64,000 nucleotides of DNA from NCBI GenBank assembly GCA_035457525.1, contig DATIBN010000033.1, forward strand, positions 1,061-65,060. The letters are read 5' to 3'. Positions within the stretch are counted from its first letter, which is position 1. Every line of letters begins with the position of its first letter. Below are positions 1,862-38,918 of the stretch, piece by piece. The translations under genes were made by a program, and so were the position numbers. The stretch is from Thermoanaerobaculia bacterium. Its GTDB lineage: Bacteria > Acidobacteriota > Thermoanaerobaculia > UBA5066 > Gp7-AA6. The notes below the pieces were generated by a model. It made no database searches. It was not told where the DNA came from and saw only the letters and a list, made by a program, of their open reading frames with translations.

Positions 1862-1868
1862 GGCTCTC

Positions 1869-3569: not shown

Positions 3570-3572
3570 GGT

Positions 3573-5713: not shown

Positions 5714-5715
5714 GG

Positions 5716-6861
5716 TCAGCTCTCCTTTCCGGTCCCGGTGACGTCGGGCGGCTCACTCCGATCGAGTTTGCGCGACGCCATCACGCCCGCAGTGACGAGA
5801 GCGCCACCGACCAGACCGGCGATCCCGGTCGCGACCGGGCTCACGCGCCCCTGGCGCGCCTGGATCGGCGGATACGTGTCGGGCCCCGTCGGCCGCTCGA
5901 TGTCCACGGTGTCGTGGAGAGCGACTCGGAACGCGAGCTTCTGCTCGGTGCAGCCGAAGCAGGGGTGCCCGAGGCCGATCGGCCAGGCGTCGACCACTTC
6001 GCCGAAGTGGAGCGTCGAGCAGTTCGCGTAGGTGGACGGTCCCTTGCAGCCGAGCTTGTAGAGGCAGTAGCCGAGCCGGTGCCCTTCGTCGCCGAACTTT
6101 TCGGCGAAGCGGCCCGCGTCGAAGTGCGCGCGGCGCGGGCAGTGCTCGTGAATCGTCCGCCCGTAGGCGAACTTCGGCCTTCCCTTGTCGTCGAGCTCCG
6201 GAAGCGTCCCGAACGTTGCGTACTGGAGAACGGTGCCGAGGAGGTTGTACGGGTTGGCGGGGCAGCCCGGGATCGTCACGACGGTCTTGCCCTTGAGAAC
6301 CATGGGTGCCCCCGTCGCGCCGGTCGGGTTCGGGTCCGCGGACGGGATCCCTCCCCAGGAGGCGCAGGATCCGATTGCGACGATCGCGCCGGCGTCCTTC
6401 GCCACGTCGTTGACGATTTCGAGCGCCGTGCGGCCGCCGATCATGCAGTAGATCCCGTCGTCCTTCGTGGGGATCGCGCCCTCGATCACGCAGACGTACT
6501 TCCCCTTGTTCTCCGTCATCGCGGTCTTGAGCACGGCCTCGGCCTGGTGTCCCGCGGCGGCGAGCAGCGTCTCGCAGTAGTCGAGCGACACGAGATCGAG
6601 GATCAGCTCGGAGACGGCGGGATGTGACGTCCGGAGGAGCGACTCCGTGCAGCCGGTGCACTCCTGGAAGTGGAGCCAGATGACCGAAGGTTTCAGTTTC
6701 TTCTTGACGACGGCCTGGGCGATCTCGGCTGCGGCCGAGAACGGGATTCCGACGGCGGCGAGAGCCAGGGTGCAGACCCGGATGAAATCGCGGCGATCCA
6801 CGGAGGACTTTCCGGCCGGTCGGATGCGATTGCCGACGGCGCTCGACGACTGCATAAACAA
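5716..6861 (-). CDS. hybO: [NiFe] hydrogenase small subunit
   Basis: Twin-arginine signal (VDRRDFIRVCTL). Conserved Cys clusters (CTGCTES, GCPANP, CxxC). 381 aa. Confidence 0.9.
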   Translation of the reverse strand: MFMQSSSAVGNRIRPAGKSSVDRRDFIRVCTLALAAVGIPFSAAAEIAQAVVKKKLKPSVIWLHFQECTGCTESLLRTSHPAVSELILDLVSLDYCETLLAAAGHQAEAVLKTAMTENKGKYVCVIEGAIPTKDDGIYCMIGGRTALEIVNDVAKDAGAIVAIGSCASWGGIPSADPNPTGATGAPMVLKGKTVVTIPGCPANPYNLLGTVLQYATFGTLPELDDKGRPKFAYGRTIHEHCPRRAHFDAGRFAEKFGDEGHRLGYCLYKLGCKGPSTYANCSTLHFGEVVDAWPIGLGHPCFGCTEQKLAFRVALHDTVDIERPTGPDTYPPIQARQGRVSPVATGIAGLVGGALVTAGVMASRKLDRSEPPDVTGTGKES

Positions 6862-25314: not shown

Positions 25315-25358
25315 GTTGGTCCCTCGCCCGAAGACTAGGCCCCCGTGACCGCTTGACT

Positions 25359-25376: not shown

Positions 25377-25401
25377 GGAACGCGTTCGACGCCCGCCTAC
25401 A

Positions 25402-26319
25402 GTGGGTTTCGTGGTGCATTCCTTCGCCGCGGGCCTCGGGAGACTCGCCGATCCGAAGATCTCGCTCGCGTCGTTCTCGTCCCTGTTTCTCGGGACCGTT
25501 CTCGCAGCGCACGACGGCGCGCTCTCGATCGCATGGCTCGCCGTGACGGTCGGCGGCATCTTCGCTCTCGAGATCGCGAAGAACGCTTCGGGGGAGATCC
25601 ACGACTTCGCCGCCGATTCGTCGGTGAGAGCAGAGGAGCGGACTCCGTTCTCCGGCGGCAAGCGAGTTCTGGTGGACGGAGTGCTCACGCCGCGCGAGAC
25701 TGCCGTGCTCGCGGCGACCGGTTACTTCGTCACGGCTGCGTGTGGAGTGGCGATCGTTCTCTTTCGGGAGCCGGCCGTGCTCGGACTCGGCGTGCTCGGA
25801 CTCGCGTGCGCGTACTTCTACAACGCTCCGCCGGTGCGCCTCTCGTATCGCGGCCTCGGCGAGATCGCGGTCGGGATCTGTTACGGGCCGCTCATCGCGT
25901 GCGGAACGTACCTGGTTCAGCGCGGGACGATCGCGCGCTCCGTCCTGATTCTGTCGATCCCGCTCGGTCTCCTGATCGCGGCGTTTCTCTTCGTCAACGA
26001 GATCCCCGACCGCCGCGCCGACGAAAGTACGGGCAAGCGCACTCTCGTCGTGCGCCTGGGGGCCCGTCGTGCGGCCGTCGTTTTCGGTGGGATTCTCGCC
26101 GCCGCGTTCGCTCTCCTCTTCGCGCTCCCGCTCGCAGGTCTCCCTCTCGGCCTCGCCCTCGGCGTCGTCGCGGCCGTCCCCGCTTTCTTCGCCGCCCGGG
26201 ACCTCAAGAGAGATGTCTCGACTCCCGGCGCGTCCCTGCCTGCGCAACGCCTCGCTCTCGTGACATTTCTCCTGTTCGCTGCGGGCTCGGGGGTGGGTGC
26301 GGCGCTCCTCAAATCGTGA
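25402..26319 (+). CDS. UbiA-family aromatic prenyltransferase (MenA/UbiA-like)
   Basis: Polytopic membrane protein with NEIPDRRAD (NxxxDxxxD) motif. Confidence 0.8.
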   Translation: MGFVVHSFAAGLGRLADPKISLASFSSLFLGTVLAAHDGALSIAWLAVTVGGIFALEIAKNASGEIHDFAADSSVRAEERTPFSGGKRVLVDGVLTPRETAVLAATGYFVTAACGVAIVLFREPAVLGLGVLGLACAYFYNAPPVRLSYRGLGEIAVGICYGPLIACGTYLVQRGTIARSVLILSIPLGLLIAAFLFVNEIPDRRADESTGKRTLVVRLGARRAAVVFGGILAAAFALLFALPLAGLPLGLALGVVAAVPAFFAARDLKRDVSTPGASLPAQRLALVTFLLFAAGSGVGAALLKS

Positions 26320-26349
26320 AGAACCCCCGTCTTTTCCGTACCTTGGGAC

Positions 26350-26367
26350 CTGATGCACCTGCATCAA
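26350..26367. promoter_or_regulatory. 18-bp palindrome CTGATG-N6-CATCAA (copy 5 of 5), upstream of the MtrC-like gene
   Basis: ctgatgcacctgcatcaa, 133 bp upstream of the SD-linked ATG at 26500. It is followed by an AT-rich tract with direct repeats GCAACAAACTCAAA / GCAACAGGCTCAAA (26411-26442). Confidence 0.4.
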
Positions 26368-26499
26368 GACGGGGAACGGACCGCGATATCTCATGGGATC
26401 GCAACAAACTCAAAAAATGCAACAGGCTCAAATCGCTCATATGAAGCAAACTCCGAACGCGGGGTACGACCTCGACCGGACGAATTGGAGGAGTCGAAG

Positions 26500-28581
26500 A
26501 TGACGCTGTTCCGACGCACTCTCGCGATGGCGGTGACGGCGGGCGTGGTCTCGTTGACCGGCGCCGGCAAGCCGCCGAAGATAGTCGACCCCCGGTCCGT
26601 GATGGCTCCGGACCAGCTCTACCCGACGACCGCGGTCGAGCACTACTTGACCCAGGAGGTCTTCGACTACGTCCGACCCGGGTTCAACATCCGTGTCAAC
26701 AGCGTCACGATTCCGGAGGACCGGCGTCCGGTCGTGGATCTCAACTTTTATGACGACCTGAACCAGCCGCTCGATCGGCTCGGTCAGGTCACCCCCGGTG
26801 CGCTTTCGATCAGCCACATCCTCGCGTGGTGGGATCCCGTGAAGCGCCAGTACACCGCCTATACGACGCGGACCCAGACGAGCCCGATCACCGGAGTCTC
26901 CGCCGTCCAGGCGTCGTCCGACTCCGGCGGCGCGTTCACGGACATCGAGATCGGCCACGCGAGGTACCGGTTCCGCACGGCGCTGCCGGCGGACTTCGAC
27001 CGGACCAAGACCCACACGCTCGCCATCTACGCGACGCGCAACCTGAACGCGATCCTCGGCAAGAACTACTACGAGAACGTCGAGCACGACTTCCGCCCGG
27101 ACGCGGCCCCCGTCACCGAGACCTGGGCCGCCGTCACGAACGTCGAGCAAAGCTGCAACAAGTGCCACAACCCGCTTTCCGCGCACGGAGGCTCCCGGCA
27201 GGACGTGAAGCTCTGCGTGACCTGCCACCAGCCCCAGACGACGGATCCCGATACGGGGCAGACCGTGGATTTCAAGGTGATGATCCACAAGATCCACCGG
27301 GGCGAGGACCTGCCGAGCGTCCAGGCGGGCACGCCCTACGTCATCATCGGAAACCAGCAGTCCGTTCACGACTACTCCGAGGTCGTGTTCCCGCAGGACA
27401 TCCGCAACTGCACGACGTGCCACCAGGCGACCGCGCCCGAGGGACATATCTGGTACACGCGCCCGAGCCGCGCCGCCTGTTCCTCCTGCCACGACAACGT
27501 CGACTTCGCAACCGGTCAGAATCACCCCGCCGGCGCACAGGCCGACGACTCGGCCTGCGCGAGCTGCCACATCCCACAGGGCGACCGCGAGTTCGACGCG
27601 TCGATCAAGGGCGCGCACACGGTGCCGCTGAAGTCGGCGCAGTTGAAGGGGCTGACCGCGACCATCGTGTCGGTCGAGGATGCCGGACCCGGGTTGAAAC
27701 CGCGCGTGACCTTCCAGCTCAAGGAAGACGACGGAACCATCCTGAATCCGCAGCCTTTCGGCAGCAACCTGAACCTCCTCATGGGCGGCCCCACGAAGGA
27801 CTACGCGATCAATCCAATCCGGGAGCGCGCGGACAGCGCGTCCTTCAACGGTACGGTCGCGACCTACACGTTCAATCGGATGATCCCGGCCGACGCGACG
27901 GGCACGTGGGCGTTCTCGATCGAGGCGCGGCGCACGGTCGCTCTGAACCCGGGCACCACGGACCAGATGAACGTCACCGAGGGCGCGCTCAACCCGGTCG
28001 CCTATGCGGCCGTCACGGACTCGCAGCCGGTGCCACGGCGGATGACGGTCTCGATGGCCAAGTGCAACGAGTGCCACGACAGTCTCCGGCTTCACGGCGG
28101 CCAGCGGATCGAGATCCAGGAATGCGTGATGTGCCACAACCCGAACGCGAGCGACACCTCGCGGCGGCCGGCGGCGAACAATCCACCCGAGTCGATCGAC
28201 TTCAAGCGGATGATCCACCGGATCCACACGGGCGAGGAGCTCACGCAGGACTACACGGTGTACGGCTTCTTCACGCCGCCGAATCCGCCGAACCCGATCA
28301 ACTTCAACCACGTCCTGTTCCCGGGAGACCGGCGCGACTGCCAGTCGTGTCACGTCGCCGGCGAGTATCAGCTGCCGCTCGGCGAGGACAATCTGCCCAC
28401 ACAGACGTTGCGAGACTTCTACACGCCCCAGCAACCCACCGCGACCTCGTGCCTCGGGTGCCACGACACGCGGTCCGCGGCGGCGCACGCCTTCGTCAAC
28501 ACGGCGCCCTTCGGAGAGGCCTGCGCGTCCTGTCACGGTCCGAACGCCGAGTTCGCCGTCGACAAGGTCCATGCCCGCTAG
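26500..28581 (+). CDS. mtrC: decaheme outer-surface c-type cytochrome (MtrC/OmcA family-like)
   Basis: Signal peptide MTLFRRTLAMAVTAGVVSLTGA. Ten CxxCH motifs. GGAGG 6 nt upstream. Operon with MtrA- and MtrB-like genes. Confidence 0.75.
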   Translation: MTLFRRTLAMAVTAGVVSLTGAGKPPKIVDPRSVMAPDQLYPTTAVEHYLTQEVFDYVRPGFNIRVNSVTIPEDRRPVVDLNFYDDLNQPLDRLGQVTPGALSISHILAWWDPVKRQYTAYTTRTQTSPITGVSAVQASSDSGGAFTDIEIGHARYRFRTALPADFDRTKTHTLAIYATRNLNAILGKNYYENVEHDFRPDAAPVTETWAAVTNVEQSCNKCHNPLSAHGGSRQDVKLCVTCHQPQTTDPDTGQTVDFKVMIHKIHRGEDLPSVQAGTPYVIIGNQQSVHDYSEVVFPQDIRNCTTCHQATAPEGHIWYTRPSRAACSSCHDNVDFATGQNHPAGAQADDSACASCHIPQGDREFDASIKGAHTVPLKSAQLKGLTATIVSVEDAGPGLKPRVTFQLKEDDGTILNPQPFGSNLNLLMGGPTKDYAINPIRERADSASFNGTVATYTFNRMIPADATGTWAFSIEARRTVALNPGTTDQMNVTEGALNPVAYAAVTDSQPVPRRMTVSMAKCNECHDSLRLHGGQRIEIQECVMCHNPNASDTSRRPAANNPPESIDFKRMIHRIHTGEELTQDYTVYGFFTPPNPPNPINFNHVLFPGDRRDCQSCHVAGEYQLPLGEDNLPTQTLRDFYTPQQPTATSCLGCHDTRSAAAHAFVNTAPFGEACASCHGPNAEFAVDKVHAR

Positions 28582-29566
28582 CGGGGGGAAGGACACCGAT
28601 CTCCGCGCCCGCCCGTTTCGCCGGGCGCGGAGCCTGTCCGTCTCCCTCCTGGCGTTCGCGATCGCCGCGCTGACGCTCGCCGTCGCGACGGCTCAGAACG
28701 CTCCGCCCGCACCCACGCCGACACCCGCCTCCGCCGAGGCGGCGCCGGCGGAAGCCGCCGCGCTCTGCGGCGACTGCCACGACGACCAGGCCAAGGCCTT
28801 CGCGGCCAATCCGCACGCGCGAATGCCCGAGAAGCTCCGTCCCTTCGCGGGTTCTCCGAACTCCCTCTGCGAGAGCTGCCACGGCGACGGAAAAGCCCAC
28901 ATCGAGGCGGGAGGCGACAAGGCGCTGATCCGCGGCTTCCATGGCCGCGCCGACGCGGACACCTGTCTGACCTGCCACCTGCCGCGAGGAGACCATTCCG
29001 GACTGCGCGGCGGAATCCACACGAACTCGGAGGCCGTGCGCTGCACGACCTGCCACTCGGTTCACAGCCCGACGCCGAAGAGCCCGCACCTGCTGGCGAA
29101 GGCGCCGGTTCCGCTGTGCGCGTCGTGTCACGTCGTCCAGTCCGCGTCCCTCGCGACGAAGCCCTTCGCGCACCGGCTGGGTCGCGGCGGCCTCGACTGC
29201 ACCTCCTGTCACGACCCGCACGGCCGTCCCGGCAAGGAGAGCCTGAAGCAGACCCGCGACGGCGAGATGCCGTGCCTGAACTGCCACGCCGAGAAGCGCG
29301 GACCGTTCGTCTTCGAGCATCCACCCTCGGGTCTCGTCGGGGACTGCACGACGTGCCACCAGCCGCACGGCTCATCCAACCCGAAGCAACTCACGCGGGC
29401 GAACGTCTTCCAGCTCTGCCTGGAGTGCCACTCGACGCTCTCGGCCTCGACGCTCGGGTCGCAACCCCCCTCCTTCCACAACATCTCTCTGCCCCGGTAC
29501 CGCAACTGCACGACCTGTCACGTGGCCATCCACGGCTCGAATCTTTCGCCCGTCTTCTTCAAGTGA
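28571..29566 (+). CDS. mtrA: periplasmic decaheme c-type cytochrome (MtrA/DmsE/PioA family)
   Basis: 331 aa with ten CxxCH motifs (CGDCH, CESCH, CLTCH, CTTCH, CASCH, CTSCH, CLNCH, CTTCH, CLECH, CTTCH). Size and heme count match MtrA. Confidence 0.85.
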   Translation: MPASGGKDTDLRARPFRRARSLSVSLLAFAIAALTLAVATAQNAPPAPTPTPASAEAAPAEAAALCGDCHDDQAKAFAANPHARMPEKLRPFAGSPNSLCESCHGDGKAHIEAGGDKALIRGFHGRADADTCLTCHLPRGDHSGLRGGIHTNSEAVRCTTCHSVHSPTPKSPHLLAKAPVPLCASCHVVQSASLATKPFAHRLGRGGLDCTSCHDPHGRPGKESLKQTRDGEMPCLNCHAEKRGPFVFEHPPSGLVGDCTTCHQPHGSSNPKQLTRANVFQLCLECHSTLSASTLGSQPPSFHNISLPRYRNCTTCHVAIHGSNLSPVFFK

Positions 29567-29573
29567 GGGCGCG

Positions 29574-31520
29574 ATGAGACCCGAACGGATCGCGGTTTTC
29601 CTCCTCGGCGCCGTTCTGCTCCTGGTTCCGACCGGTGCGTCGGGCCAGGCGATCCCCCTCGACCTGGAAATCGGATACCGGTTCGTGGACGTCGACGGGA
29701 ACGACGACATGTACCGCAGCCAGATCAACGACCGCGAGGGGATCCTCCTGCGGTCGTTGACGTTCGCAACGGGAACGGTCGGCGGCTCGTTCGTCGACTC
29801 ACTGCGCGTGGATGCCTTCGACCTGGGCGCCGGGCCCGCCGGCCGGTTCCGCCTCGAGGCCGGGAAGACCGGCCTCTACCGTCTGCGCGTGGACTACCGT
29901 CGGATGGAGTTCTTCAGCGCGCTGCCGGCGTTCGCCAATCCGCTTCTCGACCGGGGCATCATCCCCGGCCAGCACACGTACGACCGGACGCGCCACCTGC
30001 TCGACGCGGAAATCGAGCTCCTGCCCTACGCGACCTTCTCGCCGATCGTCGGCTACTCGCTCAATCGGTACGAAGGTCCGGCCCGAACCACCTACGACGT
30101 CGGGGGCGACGAGTTCCGGCTCGCCTCGGATCTCGAGGACACGGAGCAGGAAGCGCGCATCGGCGTCGCGTTTCACACGGAGAACATCTCCGGCCGGATC
30201 GTGCAGGGGTGGCGGCAGTTCAAGGAAACCGAGAGGCTGACCCTCGCTCCGGGCGAGGGCGCCGGCAACAACGCCGGACCCGTGCTCGGCACGCCCGTGT
30301 CCATCACCGACTTCGAGCGGGATTCGCGCGTGAGGACGAACGTCCCGGTGACGACGGCGTTCCTGACCGGCCGGTTCGCCGGCCGCCTCCGGATCGCGGC
30401 GGGATACCTCCGCGCGAACAGCGAGACCCAGGCGTCGGAGACCGAGGACCTGACGGGCAACCTCGTCTCCTTCCAGATCAGCCGCTTCTTCCGCGGCCTC
30501 TCCGAGCCCATCTCTTCGCGCGCGCGTAACGAGCAGTGGCGCGGGCACGGCCGCGTCGAGTTCGAGATCGTCGACGGGATGGACATCTCCGCCGGCTACA
30601 CGCAGCGACACCGCGAGCTCGACGGCTTCGCGCTCATCTCCAGCCTCTTCCTCGACACCCTGACGTTCTCGGGACAGGACCCGCGCGACCTCCAGAGGTT
30701 GATCGAGGCGAACACCGCGCTCGAGAAGACCGAGAAGATCTTCGACGCGGCCTTCGACGCCCGGAGCCTCGGTCCGGTCGCCGTGCGCGTCGGATACGAG
30801 CAGACCGACCAGGACGTGCGGGTCACGCCCGATCCCGAAGAGATCGTCGTGCCCGGCGGCCAGGGCGGCGATTTCGACCGCCGGATCAAGTCCTGGACGG
30901 CCTCGGCGAATTTCCGCAGCGGCGGGATCACGCTCGGCGCCGACTACCGCAACGACCGCGCGGACGACGCCATCGTTCGGATCGACTACATCGAGCGCGA
31001 CCGCTATCGCGTGCGCGCCGGCTTTTCTCTGGGAGATCGCCTCCGGCTCTCCGCCAACGGCGAGCAGGTCGACGTTTCGAACGACGATCCCGGGATCGGG
31101 TTCGACGGTCGGATCCGGCAGTACGGCGGAGATCTCGAGGGCGTTCCCTGGAAGCCGCTCACGCTCCGCTTCTCCGCCAGCCGCTTCGAGGCGCGGAGCA
31201 CGATTCCGATCCGCCAGCCCCAGAATTTCTCGGTGATCGAGTCCCGGCATCGCGAGGACGGAACCTGGTTCGAGGGGGGCGCGGCGCTGGCATTCACCCG
31301 CTTCCGGCTCGAGGGGGCTCTGGGCCGGTTGGAGAACGAGGGGACCTTCCCCTTCACGATCGATCGGGCCCGGGCGCGCGCCGAGTTCGACTTCACCGCG
31401 CACCTGTCCGGCATCCTCGACTGGTATAACGACGAATACAGCGAATCGCCGCAGGACAACGGGAACCTGGGCGGCTTCGAGGCGAGCCGCTACGGGGTTT
31501 TTCTGCGGTTCCGCCTTTGA
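29574..31520 (+). CDS. mtrB: outer-membrane beta-barrel porin of the porin-cytochrome complex (MtrB/PioB-like)
   Basis: Signal peptide. 648 aa with alternating-hydrophobic beta-strand character, ending in an aromatic/hydrophobic C-terminus. Lies immediately after the mtrA-like gene. Confidence 0.7.
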   Translation: MRPERIAVFLLGAVLLLVPTGASGQAIPLDLEIGYRFVDVDGNDDMYRSQINDREGILLRSLTFATGTVGGSFVDSLRVDAFDLGAGPAGRFRLEAGKTGLYRLRVDYRRMEFFSALPAFANPLLDRGIIPGQHTYDRTRHLLDAEIELLPYATFSPIVGYSLNRYEGPARTTYDVGGDEFRLASDLEDTEQEARIGVAFHTENISGRIVQGWRQFKETERLTLAPGEGAGNNAGPVLGTPVSITDFERDSRVRTNVPVTTAFLTGRFAGRLRIAAGYLRANSETQASETEDLTGNLVSFQISRFFRGLSEPISSRARNEQWRGHGRVEFEIVDGMDISAGYTQRHRELDGFALISSLFLDTLTFSGQDPRDLQRLIEANTALEKTEKIFDAAFDARSLGPVAVRVGYEQTDQDVRVTPDPEEIVVPGGQGGDFDRRIKSWTASANFRSGGITLGADYRNDRADDAIVRIDYIERDRYRVRAGFSLGDRLRLSANGEQVDVSNDDPGIGFDGRIRQYGGDLEGVPWKPLTLRFSASRFEARSTIPIRQPQNFSVIESRHREDGTWFEGGAALAFTRFRLEGALGRLENEGTFPFTIDRARARAEFDFTAHLSGILDWYNDEYSESPQDNGNLGGFEASRYGVFLRFRL

Positions 31521-31558
31521 AAGGGTCACGAAAGGGGAGCGGTAACAGGGAGATGAAG

Positions 31559-31840
31559 ATGAAAAAGAGCGGGTCGAAGATCGGATTCATTGCACTGGCA
31601 TTTTTCTGGGCCGGCTGGATGGCTTTGACGTCCGTGTCGACCGCGACACTTCCGATCCAGAAGAAGGCGAAGGAAGCCGGGTATCCGGCGACCAACTGCC
31701 AGTACTGCCACGTCGAGAAGCTCCCGAAGAAGGGGGCCGTGTCGCACAACGAGCGTGGCAAATGGCTGATCGCCGAAAAGGCAAAGCGGAAAGCGGCCGA
31801 GGTGGATGCCGCCTGGCTGAAGGATTACCCGGGCAAGTAA
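31559..31840 (+). CDS. small secreted single-CxxCH protein, paralog 1 (putative monoheme cytochrome c)
   Basis: MKKSGSKIGFIALAFFWAGWMALTSVSTATLPIQKKAKE...NCQYCH...WLKDYPGK. Highly similar to the ORFs at 35408 and 38600. Confidence 0.6.
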   Translation: MKKSGSKIGFIALAFFWAGWMALTSVSTATLPIQKKAKEAGYPATNCQYCHVEKLPKKGAVSHNERGKWLIAEKAKRKAAEVDAAWLKDYPGK

Positions 31841-31851
31841 GAACCGGGGAT

Positions 31852-31885
31852 CGGCCGGCCGGCTGCGGCCGGCCGGTGTTCGTTT
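31852..31885 (+). terminator. hairpin (self-complementary CCGGCCGG pair) followed by a T-rich tract
   Basis: cggccggccggctgcggccggccggtgttcgtttt, directly after small paralog 1. Confidence 0.4.
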
Positions 31886-31913
31886 TCACGCCCGACGCGA
31901 GGGGGGCGCCCGC

Positions 31914-33866
31914 ATGAGGCTGGCTTCGGCGTCGATGGTCCTCTGTCTCTCGGCGCTGGCCGCGGTCGCGCAGGCCCAGAAGGCGCCGACGAACGAGGAC
32001 TGCCTGACGTGCCACGAGGACCCGGAGTCGAAGCGCGCCAACGGCACGCCGGTCTTCGTCGCGAAGGACCGATTCGCGTCCTCTCTGCACGGCGAGGCGG
32101 GCCTCGCCTGCATCGACTGTCACGCCGACCTGGCGAAGACCGCGGACTTTCCGCACCCCGAGAAGCTCGCGCCGGCGCAGTGCTCGAGCTGCCACGACGA
32201 GGCGGTGAGGGCCTACTCCGAGGGGGTCCACGCGCTCGCGCGCCAGAAGGCTCCGGGCAGCCGGGCAGCGACCTGTGTGAGCTGTCATGGTGATGCCCAC
32301 ACGATGGTCGGCAGCTCGAGCCCCGGGTCGCCGATCTCCCGCACCGCCCTGCCCAAGACCTGCGGCAAGTGCCACGGCGTGAAGTTCGTCATGGAGCCCT
32401 CCGGTTACGACGTCAGCCCGTTCTTCAACTACCAGGAGAGCGTGCACGGGCGCGCCGTCGCCAACGGCTCCCAGACGGCCGCGGTGTGCACCGACTGCCA
32501 CAACGCGCACGACGTGCGCAGCGGCAAGGACCCCAAGTCGACGATCTTCAAGTTCAACGTGCCGGCCACCTGCAACAAGTGCCATGCCGAGCAGTCCGCT
32601 CAATTCATCGAAAGCGTGCACGGCAAGGCTCTCGAACGCGGAAACTGGCAGGCGCCCGTCTGCACCGACTGCCATGGCATCCACCTGATCAAGGATCACG
32701 TCGACCCGGCATCCTCGGTCTCCTCGCAGGCGGTCGCCCAGACGACCTGCGCCCAGTGTCACGAGGGCGTTCGGCTGACCCAGGAGTTCGGTGTCGCGCC
32801 GCAGCGCGTCGCGTCCTACCGGGGGAGCTATCACGGCCTGGCGTCGAGGATCGGAGCGGACGTGGCGGCCAACTGCGCGAGCTGCCACGGCGTGCACAAC
32901 ATCCTCCCGTCCTCGGATCCGCGCTCGACGGTCTACAAGGCCAACCTGGAGAAGACCTGCGGAACGTGCCACCCGGGGGCCGGAGCGAACTTCGCCGCCG
33001 GCACGATCCACCTCGGAGTTCCCGAGTCTCAGGACATCGGGTCGAAGGCCACGCGCTGGGTGCGCGTCATCTACATCGTTCTGATCGCCGGCACCATCGG
33101 ATTCATGCTGCTCCACAACGGGCTCGCGTGGTGGCGGCACGCCGCCGCCAAGCGCCGGCGCAAGGACCGCGTGATCCTGCGCATGAACAGGGTCCAGCGG
33201 ATCCAGCACTTCATCCTGTTCGCGAGCTTCGTGCTCCTGGTCCTGTCGGGCTTCGCGCTCGCCTGGCCGGATTCCTGGCTGGCCTGGCTGCTTGGCTCGA
33301 ACGAAAGCCTCCGGCGCACGATCCACCGCGTGGCGGGCGCCGTGATGCTCCTCCTCGCTCTCTTCCACGTGGGCTACATGGTCGGGACGCGGGAGGGCCG
33401 CCAGGGAATCAAGGACTTCTGGTTCCGGCCGCGCGACCTGCGCGACCTCTTCGGGAACTTCCGTTATTTCCTGGGACTCACGGACCGCCGTCCCGGATTC
33501 GGCCACTTCACTTACGCCGAGAAAGTCGAGTACTGGGCGCTGATCTGGGGCACGGGCGTCATGGGCGTCACGGGACTGATGCTCTGGTTCAAGGTGCAGT
33601 TCGGCACTTGGATTCCCCGCTGGTGGCTCGACATCGCGACGGCGATCCACTTCTGGGAGGCGGTGCTCGCCACGCTCGCGATCGTGGTCTGGCACTTCTA
33701 TCAGGTCATCTTCGAGCCCGAGGTCTACCCGATGAACTGGGCGTGGTGGGACGGGCGGATGACGGAGGAGGAGTACGCCCACGAGCACGGAGAAGAGCAC
33801 GCGAAGCGGCTCCGCGAGCAGGAAGAGAAGAAGGGTGCTCCGCCTCCGAAGCCCTCGGAGTCGTAA
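31914..33866 (+). CDS. multiheme cytochrome c fused to dihaem cytochrome b (CbcL-like inner-membrane quinol oxidoreductase)
   Basis: Signal peptide. Eleven CxxCH motifs in the N-terminal periplasmic domain. C-terminal FdnI/HydC-like 4-5 TM dihaem cytochrome b domain. Confidence 0.8.
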   Translation: MRLASASMVLCLSALAAVAQAQKAPTNEDCLTCHEDPESKRANGTPVFVAKDRFASSLHGEAGLACIDCHADLAKTADFPHPEKLAPAQCSSCHDEAVRAYSEGVHALARQKAPGSRAATCVSCHGDAHTMVGSSSPGSPISRTALPKTCGKCHGVKFVMEPSGYDVSPFFNYQESVHGRAVANGSQTAAVCTDCHNAHDVRSGKDPKSTIFKFNVPATCNKCHAEQSAQFIESVHGKALERGNWQAPVCTDCHGIHLIKDHVDPASSVSSQAVAQTTCAQCHEGVRLTQEFGVAPQRVASYRGSYHGLASRIGADVAANCASCHGVHNILPSSDPRSTVYKANLEKTCGTCHPGAGANFAAGTIHLGVPESQDIGSKATRWVRVIYIVLIAGTIGFMLLHNGLAWWRHAAAKRRRKDRVILRMNRVQRIQHFILFASFVLLVLSGFALAWPDSWLAWLLGSNESLRRTIHRVAGAVMLLLALFHVGYMVGTREGRQGIKDFWFRPRDLRDLFGNFRYFLGLTDRRPGFGHFTYAEKVEYWALIWGTGVMGVTGLMLWFKVQFGTWIPRWWLDIATAIHFWEAVLATLAIVVWHFYQVIFEPEVYPMNWAWWDGRMTEEEYAHEHGEEHAKRLREQEEKKGAPPPKPSES

Positions 33867-33923
33867 ACTGGTCTCCCGATTCGCCGGAAAACGGTACGCC
33901 GCCCTGATTCAGGAGGGATAAGC

Positions 33924-35378
33924 ATGCCGAAGAAGGGGACCAGAACGTTCGGACAGTGGCTGCGGCCCGCTTTCTATCTCGGGCAGAATCCGATCAGCCT
34001 GACCGGCGCGATCCTGACGACGAGCGCCGGCCTGACTCTCGTGACGTTCTGGGCCTACGAGATCCTCAAGGGTGGGCCCGTTCATCCGTACACGGGCATC
34101 GTCTTCTTCCTCGTACTTCCCGGGATTTTCCTTCTCGGCCTCGTCCTGATGCCGCTCGGGGCGTTCCTCCAGCGCCGCAAACTGCGGAAGGAAGGCAAGC
34201 TCGCGCAGCCGTATCCGGCGATCGACCTTCGCCGGCCGATCCTCCGGCGCGCTCTCGTCCTCGTGATCTTCGCCAGCGCGTTGAACGCGACTCTCATGGG
34301 CATCGCGAGCTACAAGGGCGTCGAGCACATGGACTCCGTCGAGTTCTGCGGGCAGACCTGTCACGTCGTGATGGCGCCGGAGTTCACGGCGTACAAGGGG
34401 TCCCCGCACTCGCGGGTTCCCTGCGTGGACTGCCACATCGGGTCGGGCGCGCCGTGGTTCGTGAAGGCGAAAATCTCGGGAGTTCGCCAGGTGTTCGCCG
34501 TCGCCTTCGACACCTATTCGCGCCCGATCCCCTCGCCCGTCGAGGAGCTGCGCCCCGCGCGCGACACCTGCGAGCAGTGCCACTGGCCGCAGAAGTTCAC
34601 GGGCGACAAGCTCCTGGTGCGCAAGAAATTCACGGACGACGAGAAGAACACCCCCCTGACGACGGTGCTGCTGCTCAAGATCGGCGGCCGGCGCGGCGAC
34701 GGCGGCATCGGCATCCACGGCCGCCACCTCGACGAGGTCGAGCGGATTCAGTACGTCACGACGGACCGGCGTCGGCAGGTGATCCCGCAGGTGACCTACA
34801 CCGGAACCGACGGGCGGCAGATCGTGTACGCCTCCTCAGAGATCAAGGCGACGGCGGAACAGCTCAAGACCGGCGAGCGCCGCACGATGGACTGCATGGA
34901 TTGCCACAACCGTCCGTCGCACGCGTTCCAGATGCCGGAGCGGGCGGTCGACGAGGCGATGGCGACCAACCGCATCAGCCCGGAGCTGCCGTTCGCCAAG
35001 AAGAAGTCGGTGGAGCTGCTTCGCGCGGCGTATCCCGATCGTGGAACGGCCGCGCGAAAGATCCCGGCTTCCTTCGCCGAGTACTACCGGACGACGTATC
35101 CGCAGGAGTATCAGACCCACCGTGCGCTCGTGGAGTCGTCGGGCCAGCAGGTCGCGGAGATCTACCTGCGGAACGTCTTCCCGAACATGAAGATCACGTG
35201 GGGCACCTATCCGAACAACATCGGGCACGAGGACTTTCTCGGCTGCTTCCGCTGCCACGACGGCAACCACAAGAGCGCCGACGGAAAGCTGATCTCCGAC
35301 GACTGCGAAGCGTGCCACACGGTTCTCGCGCAGGAGGAATCGGATCCCAAGGTCCTCGCGGACCTGGGTCTCAAATAG
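33924..35378 (+). CDS. inner-membrane multiheme c-type cytochrome (ImcH/NapC-NirT-like, 7 heme motifs)
   Basis: Three N-terminal TM helices. One CX3CH (CGQTCH) and six CxxCH motifs. Confidence 0.7.
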   Translation: MPKKGTRTFGQWLRPAFYLGQNPISLTGAILTTSAGLTLVTFWAYEILKGGPVHPYTGIVFFLVLPGIFLLGLVLMPLGAFLQRRKLRKEGKLAQPYPAIDLRRPILRRALVLVIFASALNATLMGIASYKGVEHMDSVEFCGQTCHVVMAPEFTAYKGSPHSRVPCVDCHIGSGAPWFVKAKISGVRQVFAVAFDTYSRPIPSPVEELRPARDTCEQCHWPQKFTGDKLLVRKKFTDDEKNTPLTTVLLLKIGGRRGDGGIGIHGRHLDEVERIQYVTTDRRRQVIPQVTYTGTDGRQIVYASSEIKATAEQLKTGERRTMDCMDCHNRPSHAFQMPERAVDEAMATNRISPELPFAKKKSVELLRAAYPDRGTAARKIPASFAEYYRTTYPQEYQTHRALVESSGQQVAEIYLRNVFPNMKITWGTYPNNIGHEDFLGCFRCHDGNHKSADGKLISDDCEACHTVLAQEESDPKVLADLGLK

Positions 35379-35407
35379 ATGAGGCTGCTAGACTTCAAAC
35401 CGGACTG

Positions 35408-35707
35408 GAGGAACCAATGAACAGCGGAAAATCGCGCGTCGCCCTCGTTGCGCTCGTCCTCTTCTGGGTCGGCTGGATGGCGTTCACCTCGACATCGTCG
35501 GCGACCCTCCCCATGCAGAAGAAGGCGAAAGAGCTGGGCATCACCGGAGTGACGGACTGCCTGTCCTGCCATGGCGAGAAGATGCCCAAGAAGGGCGCCT
35601 CGACTCTGAACGACCGCGGCAAGTGGCTCGTGGCCGAGAAGGAGAAGAGGGGAGTGAAGGAAATCGACGTCGCCTGGCTGAAGGATTACCCGGGCGACAA
35701 GAAGTAG
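35408..35707 (+). CDS. small secreted single-CxxCH protein, paralog 2
   Basis: MNSGKSRVALVALVLFWVGWMAFTSTSSATLPMQKKAKE...DCLSCH...WLKDYPGDKK. Confidence 0.6.
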   Translation, partial: EEPMNSGKSRVALVALVLFWVGWMAFTSTSSATLPMQKKAKELGITGVTDCLSCHGEKMPKKGASTLNDRGKWLVAEKEKRGVKEIDVAWLKDYPGDKK

Positions 35708-35729
35708 CGCGCGCGGAAGGGTCGGCGAC

Positions 35730-36191
35730 GTGGAGGCGACGGCGAGGGAACCGGGCTCCGGCGGCGTGACGCGCCGGAGCTGGGCCTCCTGGCTCCTCGG
35801 GACGAGTCTCGGCGCGACGCTGTTTGCGTTCCTGTATCCGGTCTTGAACTACCTCGTCCCTCCGGCGTCGTCGGAGCCCTCGCTCTCCGAGTTCGAGCTC
35901 GACCTGAAGGCGGCGGACGTCCCGCCGTCCTCCGGCCGGATCGTTCCGGTCGGCGGGAAACCGGTGCTGCTCCTGAAAAACGCGGCCGGGGAGCTCTCGG
36001 CGCTGACCGCGACGTGCACGCACCTCGACTGCACGGTCCAATACCGCGCCGACCGCACCGACGTCTGGTGCGCGTGCCACAACGGAACCTACGACCTGAA
36101 GGGGCGGAACATCTCCGGACCCCCTCCCCGTCCGCTGACGCCGCTGGAGGTGTATGTCCGAGGCGAAAAGATCGTCGTCAAGCTCGCCTGA
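35730..36191 (+). CDS. Rieske iron-sulfur protein (cytochrome bc-type complex)
   Basis: Tat-like [17 protein letters not shown] ... CACHNG Rieske boxes. GTG start. Confidence 0.8.
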
Positions 36192-37278
36192 TCCGGCGCC
36201 GCGGGCGCCGGGGGAAAGCCGGCTGCACGCCTGGGCGCGCGACCGGCTGGGCTGGGACGACCTCGCGCACCTCGCGGCGAAGAAACGCGTCCCGGTTCAC
36301 CGCTACACCATCTTCTATTACCTCGGCGGGATGGCGTTGTTCCTCTTTCTCGTCCAGGTCGCCACCGGCATCCTCCTTCTCCTCTACTACCGGCCGAGCG
36401 CGGCCGAGGCGTTCGAGAGCGTCCAGTACATGATGGCCGACGTTCCGTTCGGCTGGCTGATTCGCTCGATCCACTCGTGGGGGGCGAACCTCTTCGTCGG
36501 GGTCGTCTTCGCGCACCTGATCTCGGTTTTCTTCCTGAAGGCCTACCGGGCGCCGCGCGAGATGACCTGGGTCACGGGCGTTCTGCTTCTCTTCCTCGCG
36601 CTCGGGTTCGGGTTCTCGGGCTACCTCCTGCCGTGGAACACGCTGGCGTTCTTCGCCACGAAGGTCGGAACCGACGTCCCCGCGCAGATCCCGGTCGTCG
36701 GCCACCTGCTCTCGCGCATCATGCGCGGGGGTTCGGACGTGAGCGGCGCGACGCTCTCCCGGTTCTACGGCATTCACGTCGCGATCCTGCCGGCCATCTC
36801 GACGCTGATTCTCGGGGCGCACCTCCTGCTCGTTCAGAGGCACGGGATGAGCGTTCCCCGCTCGGTGGAGGGGAAGACGCGCCGCAGCATCCCGTTCGTT
36901 CCGGACTTCCTCATGCGCGACATGGTGGGTTGGCTCGCGGCGGTCGGGCTTCTCGCGGCGCTCGCCGCGTTCTTCCCGTGGGAGCTGGGCGTCAAGGCGG
37001 ACCCGTTCGCGCCCGCGCCCGCCGGAATCCGTCCGGAGTGGTACTTCCTCTGGATGTTCCAGGGGCTGAAGTACCTTCCGGCGAAAATTTTCGGAATCCC
37101 CGGGGAGACCCTGGGCGTGCTCTTCTTCGGGGCGCTCGGCGCCGCTCTCGTCGCGGTTCCCTGGCTCGACCCGCGCGGCCGGCGCGGGATCGCGATCGCC
37201 GCCGTGGTCGTGCTCGCGGCCGCCGCGATACTGACCGTGCTCGCGCTCCTGCCGGTTCCAGGAGAAGCGAAGCCGTGA
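36154..37278 (+). CDS. cytochrome b (bc1/b6-type)
   Basis: Conserved N-terminal region [10 protein letters not shown]...[13 protein letters not shown]. Haem-ligating His in TM helices. 374 aa. Confidence 0.85.
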
Positions 37279-38549
37279 GGGGGTTCGTCGTCCTCCTCTT
37301 GATGTTCCTCGCGGCGCCGTCAGTCCGTGCCCAGGCGCCCCCGAAGCCGCCGGCCGCGATCAACGGGTGCGTCGACTGCCACACCGCCCTGGACGACCCG
37401 AGGATCACGCCGCCCGTGAAGCTCTTCGCCGACGACGTCCACGCGAAGGCCGGCTTCACGTGCGTCTTCTGCCACGGAGGGGACGCGCGGCAGGAGGACC
37501 AGGAGAAGGCGCACGATCCGGCGAAGGGCTTCATCGGCAAGCCGAAGCCGCGCGAGATCCCGGAGCTGTGCGGAAAGTGTCACTCGGACGCGGCGCTCAT
37601 GAAGCAGTACGACCCCTCCCAGAGGATCGATCAGCTCGCCGAATACCGGACGAGCGGGCACGGCAAGGCGCTCGCCCGGGGCGACACGACGGTCGCGGAG
37701 TGCGCGAGCTGCCACGGCGCGCACGGAATCCAGCCGGTGAAGGACACGCGGTCTCCCGTGTCGCCGACCCGGGTCGCGGAGACCTGCAACCACTGCCACG
37801 GAAACGCCGCGCTCATGGCGGCGCACCAGCTCCCCTCGGATCCGTACGAGAAGTGGTCTCGGAGCGTGCACTACCGTGCGCGGGTGGAGAAGGCGGACCT
37901 GTCCGCCCCGACGTGCAACTCGTGTCACGGCAACCACGGTGCGGTGCCGCCCGAGGTCGGCTCGGTGGCGAACGTCTGCGGCACGTGCCACGTGACCTTC
38001 GCCGATCAGTTCAAGCTCTCGCCTCACTGGGAACCGTTCAAGGAGATGGGCCTCCCCGGCTGCGTGGCCTGTCACGAAAACCACGAGATCGTGAAGCCGA
38101 CCGAGGCGTTCCTGGCGGAGGGGAGTGAGAGCAAGTGCTCGAGCTGCCACGAGGCGGACTCGAAGGGCGCGCGGGCGGCGGCCGAGATGCACTCGGATCT
38201 CGTCGGGCTCGACCGCGAGATCCGGCGCGCCACGCAATTGGTCGACCGTGCGGCGGAGGCGGGGATGGAGGTGTCGAAGGTCCGCTTCGACCTCGTCGCT
38301 GCGACGAACGCCCTGACGAAGGCGCGCGCCGACGTCCACCTGTTCCGCCCGTCGGCGGTTCAAGCGGCGGTGGCGGAGGGTCTGAAGGTCGCCCGCGGGG
38401 CCGCCACCGGCGGGGAGGCGCGCCTGAAGGAGCGCGACTTCCGACGCCGGGGACTATTCATCTCTCTCGGGCTGATCCTGCTGTCGATCGCGGCGCTGGT
38501 GGTCCGGATCCGCGAACGGGAGCGTTCGACGCGGGAACCCGGGGAGTAG
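37275..38549 (+). CDS. nonaheme c-type cytochrome with C-terminal membrane anchor (bc-complex c-subunit, Cbc-like)
   Basis: Signal peptide and nine CxxCH motifs. GTG start overlaps the cytochrome b stop (GTGA). C-terminal TM helix. Confidence 0.8.
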
Positions 38550-38599
38550 GCTCTATTCACGCGCAGGGACGCGACCCTGCCGAACACGGAGGATCGGAG

Positions 38600-38890
38600 A
38601 TGAAGAAACCCGACTCGCGCCTCGCCGCGACCGCGCTCGTACTGTTCTCGGCCGGATGGATCGCGCTGACAGCGTCCTCGACGGCAACGATGCCCCTGCA
38701 GAAAAAAGCGAAGGAGCTGGGCTTCTCCGCCGACAACTGCCTCTACTGCCACAACGAGAAGCTGCCGAAGAAGGGCGCCGTGACGCAGAACGGCCGGGGA
38801 GAGTGGCTCATCGCCGAGAAGGAGAAGAGACACGCCAAGGAAGTCGACGTGACCTGGCTGAAGTACTACCCGGAGGAAAAGAAGAAGTAG
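38600..38890 (+). CDS. small secreted single-CxxCH protein, paralog 3
   Basis: MKKPDSRLAATALVLFSAGWIALTASSTATMPLQKKAKE...NCLYCH...WLKYYPEEKKK. Confidence 0.6.
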   Translation: MKKPDSRLAATALVLFSAGWIALTASSTATMPLQKKAKELGFSADNCLYCHNEKLPKKGAVTQNGRGEWLIAEKEKRHAKEVDVTWLKYYPEEKKK

Positions 38891-38918
38891 GGCGCCGCTC
38901 GCCGGCGCGGGCTCACCG

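Follow-up and report, generated by a model that had tools for sequence, protein, structure and literature searches.

The 12.4-kb cluster at positions 26500–38890 (plus strand) of the 64,000-nucleotide stretch of Thermoanaerobaculia (Acidobacteriota) DNA analysed here (referred to as the window) looks like it encodes a complete haem-protein chain that would take respiratory electrons from the inner membrane out to extracellular minerals. Based on its gene content, its family and fold assignments and its conserved synteny, we consider it likely that the cluster constitutes a putative extracellular electron transfer (EET) system for respiration with insoluble or extracellular acceptors, examples being oxides of Fe(III)/Mn(IV), humics and electrodes. 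Its 11 closely packed genes, which overlap or are separated by at most 74 nt throughout, carry 49 haem-c motifs in approximately 4,000 residues, well above chance. They belong mostly to known families, with the outer-membrane barrel and three one-haem cytochromes being missed by current annotation. Third-position GC values of 0.79–0.91 marked six cluster ORFs, with the starts listed in Table 1, as real frames, and long antisense ORFs were rejected as the usual high-GC artefacts. The GC content of the cluster (0.655–0.692) equals that of the remainder of the window, so that it forms no compositional island. All genes of an initial annotation were present at the coordinates and on the strand it had given, its CxxCH counts for the MtrC-like, MtrA-like, CbcL-like and membrane-anchored c proteins (10, 10, 11 and 9) were reproduced upon recounting, and each of its family likenesses passed family and architecture testing (for the barrel as a likeness to MtrB in fold, not in sequence). 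Its four cytochrome modules were likewise recovered, although it had overlooked the three paralogous monohaem genes of ~95 aa.

Table 1. Features of the cluster and its surroundings (positions in the window).
Feature	Coordinates	Strand	Evidence
Hyb-type [NiFe] hydrogenase operon	1316..6861	-	five genes
UbiA-family prenyltransferase, immediately upstream of cluster	25402..26319	+	PF01040 102.6 bits
MtrC-like extracellular decahaem cytochrome, 693 aa, signal peptide, without lipobox	26500..28581	+	10 CxxCH, TIGR03507
MtrA/DmsE-like periplasmic/barrel-inserted decahaem cytochrome (putative location), 331 aa	28571..29566	+	10 CxxCH, TIGR03508
Predicted 26-strand outer-membrane beta-barrel, MtrB structural analogue, 648 aa	29574..31520	+	structure prediction
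Small monohaem cytochrome c paralogue 1, 93 aa	31559..31840	+	one CxxCH
GC-rich hairpin + T-rich tail, between conduit and inner-membrane genes	31850..31877	+	12-bp stem, consensus scan
CbcL/MtrH/MtoC-type quinol oxidase, 11-haem c domain + dihaem-b membrane domain fusion, 650 aa	31914..33866	+	11 CxxCH, PF01292
ImcH-type inner-membrane quinol oxidase, six-haem variant, 484 aa	33924..35378	+	3 TM, CX3CH, PF03264
Small monohaem cytochrome c paralogue 2, 96 aa	35417..35707	+	CxxCH, paralogy
Rieske [2Fe-2S] subunit, 153 aa	35730..36191	+	PF00355 43.7 bits; CTHLDC + CACH motifs
Unsplit cytochrome b, b6-like N-terminal and subunit-IV-like C-terminal part, 374 aa	36154..37278	+	PF00033, PF00032
Nonahaem cytochrome c, C-terminal membrane anchor, 424 aa	37275..38549	+	9 CxxCH; TM helix 391-414
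Small monohaem cytochrome c paralogue 3, 96 aa	38600..38890	+	CxxCH, paralogy

The outermost component, preceded by a GGAGGAG ribosome-binding site 5′ of its ATG, aligned with the whole OmcA/MtrC family model (TIGR03507; 495 bits versus a cutoff of 209), matched PF22113 twice and had MtrF as its top PDB match (3pmq, E 3e-27), in agreement with its earlier MtrC-like designation; the orthologue in another locus (L087) is likewise 693 aa long. No lipobox was found in this protein and no secretion system was seen within the window, which counts against the proposed outward EET. The MtrA-like claim was also sustained (TIGR03508; 205.9 bits versus a cutoff of 192.2). Structure prediction returned the proposed ~650-aa barrel as 26 strands, with strands 1 and 2 separated by a helix and with MtrB as its top structural match. 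However, this cysteine-free protein shares only 9% sequence identity with MtrB and remained below membership of PF11854 and the NCBIfam models. The MtrC/MtrA/MtrB architecture initially described thus stood in its C-A-B order, families and fold, while the barrel lies outside MtrB/PioB by sequence and is best described as a predicted structural analogue of MtrB. Because of this divergence, seating of the MtrA-like protein inside the barrel would be by analogy with MtrCAB only.

Downstream of the conduit, the CbcL-like protein indeed proved to combine a multihaem c domain with a HydC/FdnI-type b domain (Ni_hydr_CYTB type; PF01292, 58.3 bits versus a cutoff of 30.1, residues 423–603; FdnI match 1kqf_C, E 2.3e-4), with five TM hydropathy peaks C-terminal to the haem domain. 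CbcL family members with eleven haems have been published. The ImcH-like protein (PF03264, 41 bits versus a cutoff of 24.1; NrfH match 2j7a_C, E 4.6e-5) showed hydropathy peaks for the three TM segments that had been claimed (24–42, 58–76 and 110–128), but six haem motifs instead of seven, namely one CxxxCH (CGQTCH at 142) and five CxxCH. This haem number was the sole error found in the motif counts of the initial annotation. The haem spacing (24/49/108/117/20) is that of published ImcH homologues, and K183 and Y198, invariant across the ImcH-like family, occur at a +10 offset from K173 and Y188 of GSU3259, for which a role in quinol oxidation has been proposed.

The third inner-membrane unit was confirmed as a Rieske protein, a cytochrome b and a nine-haem membrane-anchored c by domain matches, motifs and a TM helix, with the start codon of the nonahaem c gene overlapping the stop codon of the cytochrome b gene. 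Cytochrome b matched PF00033 (173.8 bits) and PF00032 (38.4 bits), and its top PDB matches were cytochrome b6 (E 5e-58); it scored 211 bits on the ExtP model (cutoff 290), and the ExtM model yielded 21.9 bits (cutoff 800), both below membership. The earlier name "Cbc" fits the Rieske/b/multihaem c composition, but is a loose label, the nearest EET precedent being Geobacter ExtMNOPQ.

Paralogue 1 of the small cytochromes, which is 59–64% identical to paralogues 2 and 3, carries a signal peptide followed by a Lys-rich mature part of ~64 aa. Searches of Pfam, NCBIfam and PDB gave no match to this small cytochrome, and similarity to solved cytochromes was undetectable. A gene for it also lies within another cluster, of MtoAB-like type, where its neighbours are a true MtrB/PioB barrel gene on one side and a CymA-like gene on the other, which ties it to EET conduits in general. 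The hairpin following paralogue 1 (folding energy –35.9 kcal/mol, z-score –2.9) is kept in a related locus (L005), where the alignment showed one change per arm, read as compensatory, and might be a terminator or attenuator. Upstream of the cluster, the UbiA-family prenyltransferase possibly acts in quinone biosynthesis. The Hyb-type hydrogenase that had been noted 20 kb upstream was found 20–25 kb upstream as an operon for a small subunit, a 4Fe-4S protein, an NrfD-type membrane subunit, a large subunit and a HycI protease, and is a possible electron donor to the quinone pool.

The proposed pathway starts from menaquinol, with the Hyb-type hydrogenase and the oxidation of organic acids as examples of what might supply it. 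On the periplasmic side of the inner membrane, as many as three alternative quinol oxidases would oxidise this menaquinol: the CbcL/MtrH-type c/b fusion, the six-haem ImcH-type relative of NapC/NirT, and Rieske/cytochrome b with its membrane-anchored nonahaem c. These may divide their labour, by analogy with Geobacter, where the use of ImcH and CbcL depends on potential. Electrons would then probably cross the periplasm via the three small lysine-rich monohaem cytochromes, as shuttles forming the periplasmic link of the pathway, enter the decahaem MtrA-like wire with the 26-strand barrel as its sheath, and presumably travel outward to leave through the MtrC-like decahaem protein at the surface.

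At least 114 species genomes, almost all of Thermoanaerobaculia/Acidobacteriota, contain the MtrC-MtrA-barrel core. Across the 49 loci with full flanks, the barrel gene was always accompanied by an MtrA-like gene (49/49) and nearly always by an MtrC-like gene (47/49), whereas ImcH-like (25/49), CbcL-like (22/49) and small cytochrome (23/49) genes were found at about half of them and Rieske plus cytochrome b at 12/49. Inner-membrane modules were attached at 28/49 loci; at the other 21/49 none was found within 10 kb, indicating that the linkage is facultative and counting against the proposed outward EET. Such variation, together with the strong hairpin separating the conduit genes from the remaining genes, could mean that the four modules form no single pathway but came to lie together through chance or history, with Rieske/b in particular serving as the general complex III of the cell for some unrelated terminal reductase or oxidase. 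However, comparative genomics bore out synteny of the modules in relatives, with all four present at 8/49 loci, and the order CbcL, ImcH, Rieske/b/c9 repeats 3′ of barrels that are only 42–54% identical. Since each unit in the window is moreover followed by a small-cytochrome paralogue, and start and stop codons overlap inside units, we regard a fortuitous neighbourhood as very unlikely.

Alternatively, the same proteins might work inward, taking up electrons from Fe(II), a cathode or a partner cell with the small cytochromes relaying them from the MtrCAB-like conduit to the CbcL/MtoC-type protein and Rieske/b, and thence to the quinone pool or a terminal reductase. The same locus of a close relative holds an MtrA-like gene, an MtrB/PioB-family barrel gene, a small cytochrome gene and a CymA-like gene; this MtoAB-like cluster resembles the Sideroxydans gene order mtoA-mtoB-mtoD-cymA, and Rieske/b complexes of Fe oxidisers participate in reverse electron flow. 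That Mtr-type conduits and CbcL/MtoC homologues also operate oxidatively, with Fe(II) oxidisers carrying CbcL/MtoC homologues and MtrAB/MtoAB (PMC6295460), counts against the proposed outward EET. Inward transfer nevertheless seems unlikely, given that ImcH homologues are so far confined to Fe(III) reducers (PMC6295460), that reducers typically have an extracellular decahaem of the MtrC type, which Mto/Pio systems lack, that the class has a single cultured member, a reducer of Fe(III) and Mn(IV), and that the quinone-reducing uptake hydrogenase in the window suits a role on the acceptor side. Instead of mineral respiration, outward transfer could also end on the cell surface or close to it, with soluble or colloidal compounds as acceptors; candidates are DMSO-type substrates, selenite/tellurite, polysulfide or sulfur, and humic quinones only. 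TIGR03508 is the DmsE family, members of which are also used in extracellular DMSO reduction, and Geobacter extHIJKLMNOPQS, the closest EET precedent for a porin-adjacent Rieske/b unit, is implicated in selenite/tellurite reduction (PMC5877670), with the ExtP score of cytochrome b pointing in the same direction. Yet both Ext scores fall under their cutoffs, a catalytic subunit (molybdoenzyme, rhodanese or similar) is absent in and beside the cluster, and the conduit has a full-length OmcA/MtrC decahaem as its outer part, making this use of the cluster quite improbable.

The EET system proposed here shares with Shewanella MtrCAB (6R2Q) the C-A-B gene order, the OmcA/MtrC- and DmsE/MtrA-family decahaems and the 26-strand barrel with its interposed helix. 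It departs from it in the sequence of the barrel and in having ImcH-, CbcL- and Rieske/b-type inner-membrane partners instead of CymA. Shewanella MtrB has an N-terminal CXXC and Shewanella MtrC a lipobox, unlike their counterparts here. With Geobacter sulfurreducens ImcH (GSU3259), the ImcH-like protein has in common three N-terminal TM helices, a membrane-adjacent CX3CH, a NapC/NirT/NrfH-like core and the haem spacing, but carries six haems instead of seven, as published for Geothrix, Anaeromyxobacter and Acidobacteria variants. The domain fusion of CbcL (GSU0274) recurs in the CbcL-like protein, with 11 haems and five TM peaks compared to nine haems and six TM helices. In Geobacter, the ImcH and CbcL genes are not known to be linked to one another or to outer-membrane conduits. 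Physical linkage of a conduit to a CbcL/MtrH/MtoC-type quinol oxidase is shared with mtrABC-cymA-mtrH of Rhodoferax ferrireducens and with mtoAB-mtoC-mtoD of Dechloromonas and Gallionella, the latter also including a small monohaem cytochrome (PMC6295460), whereas the present cluster additionally has an ImcH-type gene and a Rieske/b unit; a 2018 survey found no imcH with adjacent mtrAB or mtoAB (PMC6295460). In the Geobacter ext cluster, a Rieske protein (ExtO), cytochrome b (ExtP) and multihaem c partners (ExtM/N) similarly adjoin a porin-cytochrome system (ExtI porin; PMC5877670), but the outer-membrane conduit is of another type and the 23-kDa ExtP is paired with ExtQ, in contrast to the unsplit cytochrome b here.

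The combination of Shewanella-type and Geobacter-type parts claimed initially holds for the families, but its chimerism was overstated, as members of the ImcH and CbcL/MtrH families are found widely among Acidobacteria and a CbcL-type gene beside mtrABC is known in Rhodoferax. According to the available text of Flieder et al. (2021), syntenic cytochrome/beta-barrel clusters occur both in marine MAGs of Thermoanaerobaculia and in Thermoanaerobaculum aquaticum, a reducer of Fe/Mn oxides in which they were proposed as metal-oxide reduction machinery; that text does not describe the barrel fold, Mtr family identity, ImcH/CbcL/Rieske linkage or small cytochromes (PMC8528874). Judging by taxon names, those clusters presumably correspond to the barrel family studied here, which includes Ca. 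Sulfomarinibacter and Sulfomarinibacteraceae loci with the C-A-B arrangement. One MtrC and two MtrA were reported for a T. aquaticum MAG (PMC9671151). Cytochrome/barrel clusters in the class, MtrC/MtrA in T. aquaticum and CbcL-type genes beside mtrAB were already known, whereas the linkage of imcH to an Mtr-type conduit, the sequence-divergent barrel, the non-lipoprotein MtrC and the unannotated small cytochrome family appear to be new.

Eleven genes on the + strand, at 26500-38890, formed a compact cluster for a putative extracellular electron transfer (EET) chain, in which neighbouring genes were separated by gaps of at most 74 nt or overlapped at their start and stop codons. The GC content of the window was ~68%, and third-position GC values of 0.79-0.91 indicated that the six cluster ORFs listed from these starts are the coding ones; long ORFs of the opposite strand are artefacts of the high GC. 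Haem c motifs numbered, in gene order, 10, 10, 0, 1, 11, 6, 1, 0, 0, 9 and 1, or 49 in ~4,000 residues. The gene coordinates in the initial annotation were correct, as were its haem counts except for the product of 33924-35378, which carried six motifs (one CxxxCH and five CxxCH) instead of seven, and the three small monohaem genes had been absent from it. The GC of the cluster (0.655-0.692) lay inside the range of the window, and a compositional island of the kind left by horizontal transfer was rejected. A sigma-70 promoter scan yielded no match, the sigma-70 consensus being uninformative for this phylum.

Coordinates of the EET cluster and of neighbouring features in the window
Feature	Coordinates	Strand	Remarks
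Hyb-type [NiFe] hydrogenase operon	1316-6861	-	small subunit, 4Fe-4S protein, NrfD-type membrane subunit, large subunit, protease
Crp/Fnr-type regulator	10965-11651		
ScdA_N/DUF1858/NnrS fusion	12197-14011	-	~604 aa; 12 kb upstream in the window
UbiA-family prenyltransferase	25402-26319	+	directly upstream of the MtrC-like gene
MtrC-like cytochrome	26500-28581	+	
MtrA-like cytochrome	28571-29566	+	
Barrel	29574-31520	+	
Small cytochrome 1	31559-31840	+	
Hairpin	31850-31877		between small cytochrome 1 and the CbcL-like gene; 12-bp GC-rich stem, T-rich tail; consensus match only
CbcL-like cytochrome	31914-33866	+	
ImcH-like cytochrome	33924-35378	+	
Small cytochrome 2	35417-35707	+	
Rieske protein	35730-36191	+	
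Cytochrome b	36154-37278	+	
Nonahaem cytochrome c	37275-38549	+	
Small cytochrome 3	38600-38890	+	

The putative outer-membrane conduit was encoded by three contiguous genes of mtrC-mtrA-mtrB type (C and A overlapping by 11 nt, A and B 7 nt apart), whose C-A-B order was conserved in relatives. The 693-aa MtrC-like protein, with 10 CxxCH motifs, scored 495 bits (cutoff 209) on TIGR03507, the model of the OmcA/MtrC family, with an alignment spanning 4-672 of its 672 positions, and its best solved relative was MtrF. The 331-aa MtrA-like protein (10 CxxCH) scored 205.9 bits on the DmsE/MtrA model TIGR03508 (cutoff 192.2). The third product, of 648 aa, was predicted to fold into a beta-barrel of 26 strands, sufficiently large to enclose MtrA, in agreement with its earlier description as a beta-barrel. 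The MtrC/MtrA/MtrB architecture proposed in the initial annotation was thus borne out by both cytochrome models, by gene contiguity and by the predicted barrel fold, but the barrel itself fell outside the MtrB/PioB sequence family. Specifically, it reached 11.9 bits (E 0.079; cutoff 23) on the MtrB_PioB model PF11854, sub-threshold matches to this model occurred in five of 33 barrel-family members (best E 0.0012), and the Pfam search further returned a weak Porin_4 match. An NCBIfam search with the barrel gave no match, and neither the single sequence (phmmer) nor a 33-member profile retrieved a match from the PDB, MtrB included. With these PDB searches empty and the Pfam traces sub-threshold, membership of the MtrB/PioB sequence family was rejected, and a relationship to MtrB was kept at the level of the predicted fold. 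In Shewanella, MtrC is a lipoprotein whose N-terminus carries a lipobox cysteine. In contrast to Shewanella MtrCAB, the barrel of the window contained no cysteine at all and the MtrC-like protein had no lipobox: its first cysteine was residue 219, and no lipobox cysteine was found in it or in the 25 N-termini examined from relatives.

A true PF11854 barrel (134 bits) was present in a close relative (contig L086), indicating that the model works in this lineage. Flanked by proteins 73-93% identical to those of the window (an ATPase, an alcohol dehydrogenase, an HpcH aldolase, an AAA protein and a solute-binding protein), positions 5700-10200 of L086 represented the same chromosomal slot as 21414-38919 of the window. 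This slot held genes for an MtrA-like protein, the bona fide MtrB/PioB barrel, a small cytochrome ~70% identical to those of the window and a CymA-like NapC/NirT protein, and both MtrC and the divergent barrel were absent from it on a contig that appears frameshifted. The lineage therefore contains both barrel families, and two conduit types share the small cytochrome. The different content of this slot suggests that conduits at one locus are replaced in a cassette-like manner. Such locus-level replacement is possible despite the lack of a compositional island.

Homologues of the divergent barrel came from Thermoanaerobaculia and were found in at least 114 species when each species was represented by a single genome. 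Among the 80 loci listed, almost all were labelled Thermoanaerobaculia, Acidobacteriota or Ca. Sulfomarinibacter(aceae), and Thermoanaerobaculum aquaticum was not among the 80. Two contigs with a C-A-B or A-B core (L028 and L061) were labelled Longimicrobiales (Gemmatimonadota) and Acidithiobacillales, and could be mis-binned short contigs or reflect transfer outside Acidobacteriota. Synteny was examined by searching every ORF of the loci with the eleven window proteins in a local BLAST, counting matches within 10 kb in the 49 loci with full flanks. An MtrA-like gene was present in all 49 and an MtrC-like gene in 47, followed by ImcH-like (25), small cytochrome (23) and CbcL-like genes (22); CbcL-like and ImcH-like genes occurred together in 22 loci, all four modules (conduit, CbcL-like, ImcH-like and Rieske/b) in eight, and 21 loci had no inner-membrane module within this distance. 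The contig with an 81% identical barrel (L005) showed exactly the gene order of the window, and loci with ~53% identical barrels carried C-A-B, three small genes, CbcL, ImcH and, in some cases, Rieske/b. This comparison, suggested in the initial annotation as a check, thus recovered both the order of the window and the complete four-module arrangement in relatives, and it points to an invariant C-A-B core to which inner-membrane modules are attached repeatedly but not obligatorily.

The first of these modules encoded a 650-aa protein with a signal peptide, 11 CxxCH motifs (residues 30-353) and a b domain of HydC/FdnI type (PF01292, Ni_hydr_CYTB; 58.3 bits, cutoff 30.1) that matched FdnI (1kqf_C, E 2.3e-4). 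Hydropathy analysis revealed five peaks after the haem domain, the protein ending before the expected position of a sixth transmembrane helix; five-helix members of the CbcL/MtrH/MtoC group are documented, and its published table lists members with 3-23 haems (CX2CH), including one with 11 (PMC6295460). The protein has the CbcL/MtrH/MtoC architecture, and the earlier CbcL-like label was appropriate. Across loci L006-L085, conduit-adjacent CbcL-like proteins carried 9 to 27 haem motifs (longest ORF 1,567 aa), and several loci contained two copies.

The 484-aa ImcH-like protein was the best conserved multihaem protein (median identity 65% versus 43% for the barrel across loci L006-L085). Its three hydropathy peaks (24-42, 58-76 and 110-128) were directly followed by a CX3CH motif (CGQTCH, 142-147) and further on by CxxCH motifs at 167, 216, 324, 441 and 461, giving a spacing of 24/49/108/117/20. 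In the published ImcH table, on whose motif and transmembrane coordinates the comparison with Geobacter ImcH (GSU3259) was based, the latter has helices at 13-35, 45-67 and 100-122 and a spacing of 24/49/106/117/20/38, and a six-haem Geothrix protein one of 24/49/109/117/20. The listed homologue GBC82363.1 (483 aa) carries its motifs at 143, 167, 216, 323, 439 and 459, almost the same positions as in the window. A NapC/NirT/NrfH-like core was recognised by PF03264 (41 bits, cutoff 24.1), and residues 111-243 matched NrfH (2j7a_C, E 4.6e-5). While Geobacter ImcH has seven haems and the window's protein six, the published family admits six-haem members, and relatives had six haems in 21 loci and seven in 11. 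Residues K183 and Y198, invariant across 36 relatives, both lay at a +10 offset from K173 and Y188 of GSU3259, which have been proposed to function in menaquinol oxidation (bioRxiv 10.1101/2023.05.03.539133). A representative search with this protein returned 3,620 matches, and every name obtained in two cluster look-ups was 'NapC/NirT family cytochrome c'; the accessions of the published ImcH Table S3 appeared in neither the search nor the look-ups. Taken together, the peaks, the CX3CH motif, the spacing and the NapC/NirT core sustain the earlier ImcH-like label, with six haems in place of seven.

In the third module, the Rieske protein displayed CTHLDC and CACH motifs, and PF00355, PF00033 and PF00032 (Rieske, and the N- and C-terminal domains of cytochrome b) were all above their cutoffs. 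The cytochrome b was unsplit and b6-like (PDB match cytochrome b6, E 5e-58), and the nonahaem cytochrome c had a C-terminal anchor. The closest EET-linked precedent of this unit is Geobacter ExtO/ExtP/ExtM-N beside the ExtI porin, ExtMNOPQ being the bc-type unit of the Geobacter selenite/tellurite operon (PMC5877670). However, scores on the equivalog models for ExtP (211 bits, cutoff 290) and ExtM (21.9 bits, cutoff 800) both fell below threshold. The motifs and domains of the earlier 'Cbc' module were recovered, but its name is therefore a loose label.

One small cytochrome gene followed each functional unit in the window, and more distant relatives carried them as a tandem array after the barrel. 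The three ~95-aa paralogues were mutually 59-64% identical, with one CxxCH each and an N-terminal hydrophobic segment; the conserved S-x-A-T at the end of this segment, read by eye, would be a signal-peptidase site. The mature protein would then comprise ~64-67 lysine-rich residues, with several lysines, N65, R67, G68, W70, W87 and Y91 among the invariant positions; no conventional distal haem ligand (Met or a second His) was conserved in the alignment. The family extended over 2,859 database clusters, and in the best 120 of these the source name was 'hypothetical protein' or none, with no Pfam domain. No Pfam or NCBIfam family matched the small cytochromes, the family profile found nothing below E 0.9 in the PDB, and Foldseek against the PDB with an AF2 model of moderate confidence (pLDDT 70) found nothing below E 2.6. 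No similarity to an MtoD-type or other characterised small cytochrome c was thus seen in these sequence searches or in the model fold.

The hairpin had a folding energy of -35.9 kcal/mol (z-score -2.9) and was kept in L005 with one, apparently compensatory, change per arm as read from the alignment; it is a candidate terminator or attenuator of transcription, or else an element that stabilises the conduit mRNA. Further upstream, the Hyb-type hydrogenase noted in the initial annotation proved real, with five genes, and would fit H2 feeding electrons into the quinone pool, although no linkage to the cluster was seen in the relatives examined. The UbiA-family prenyltransferase could act in menaquinone biosynthesis. 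The ScdA_N/DUF1858/NnrS architecture also occurred at 2013-3830 of a relative's contig (L002), ~3 kb upstream of its MtrC-like gene.

The best-supported reading of the cluster is an outward EET chain. Menaquinol would be oxidised by one of three alternative oxidases, and the electrons would traverse the periplasm, with the small cytochromes as probable carriers, before entering an MtrA-like wire inside the barrel and reaching the surface MtrC-like decahaem. The putative conduit would thereby take electrons through the outer membrane, with Fe(III)/Mn(IV) or electrodes as acceptors. By analogy with Geobacter ImcH and CbcL, the idea arises that the three oxidases might serve different acceptor potentials.

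Inward electron uptake is a rival to this outward direction. A reductive direction is supported by ImcH homologues being restricted to Fe(III) reducers (PMC6295460), by the MtrC-type outer cytochrome and by metal reduction in T. aquaticum. According to PMC8528874, this cultured class member reduces Fe(III)/Mn(IV), and a syntenic cytochrome/barrel cluster was proposed as the machinery; MtrC and MtrA have also been noted in it (PMC9671151), its link to the present cluster resting on this literature. Another rival is the delivery of electrons to a soluble or colloidal acceptor. A third is a fortuitous linkage of the Rieske/b unit; Rieske and cytochrome b genes lay within 10 kb in 12 of the 49 loci with full flanks.

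Combining these observations, we tentatively propose a joint reading, which we judge to fall a little short of an even chance. An Mtr-type wire of Thermoanaerobaculia would be sheathed by a barrel family invisible to MtrB/PioB models and fed by previously undescribed ~65-residue, lysine-rich monohaem cytochromes without a conserved Met/His distal ligand. These cytochromes would be devoted to shuttling electrons through the periplasm, from three alternative quinol oxidases to outer-membrane conduits that are interchangeable. If true, potential metal respirers in more than 100 species would escape HMM surveys requiring mtrB (e.g. Baker et al. 2022); more generally, Mtr-type conduits can be under-counted when surveys rely on MtrB/PioB marker models. 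Soils and sediments harbour abundant Acidobacteriota, whose metal respiration is uncharacterised at the molecular level. For one class, the cluster offers a wiring diagram that is concrete and testable, from quinol oxidases via candidate periplasmic carriers to an outer-membrane conduit, with the cultured relative T. aquaticum available for genetics or proteomics, and it draws attention to a large family of small cytochromes that lacks annotation and accompanies two types of conduit.

Several of these elements have precedents. MtrCAB is known outside Proteobacteria, including in Acidobacteriia (PMC8805035), cytochrome/barrel clusters have been reported in Thermoanaerobaculia (PMC8528874), CbcL-type genes are known beside mtrAB or mtoAB (PMC6295460), and the published ImcH table includes homologues from Acidobacteria. 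In contrast, a 2018 survey recorded no imcH linked to an Mtr-type conduit (PMC6295460), and such a physical linkage appears to be undescribed in the open-access literature searched. The same appears to hold there for the small-cytochrome family, for a predicted structural analogue of MtrB that escapes the MtrB/PioB models, and for a putative non-lipoprotein MtrC.
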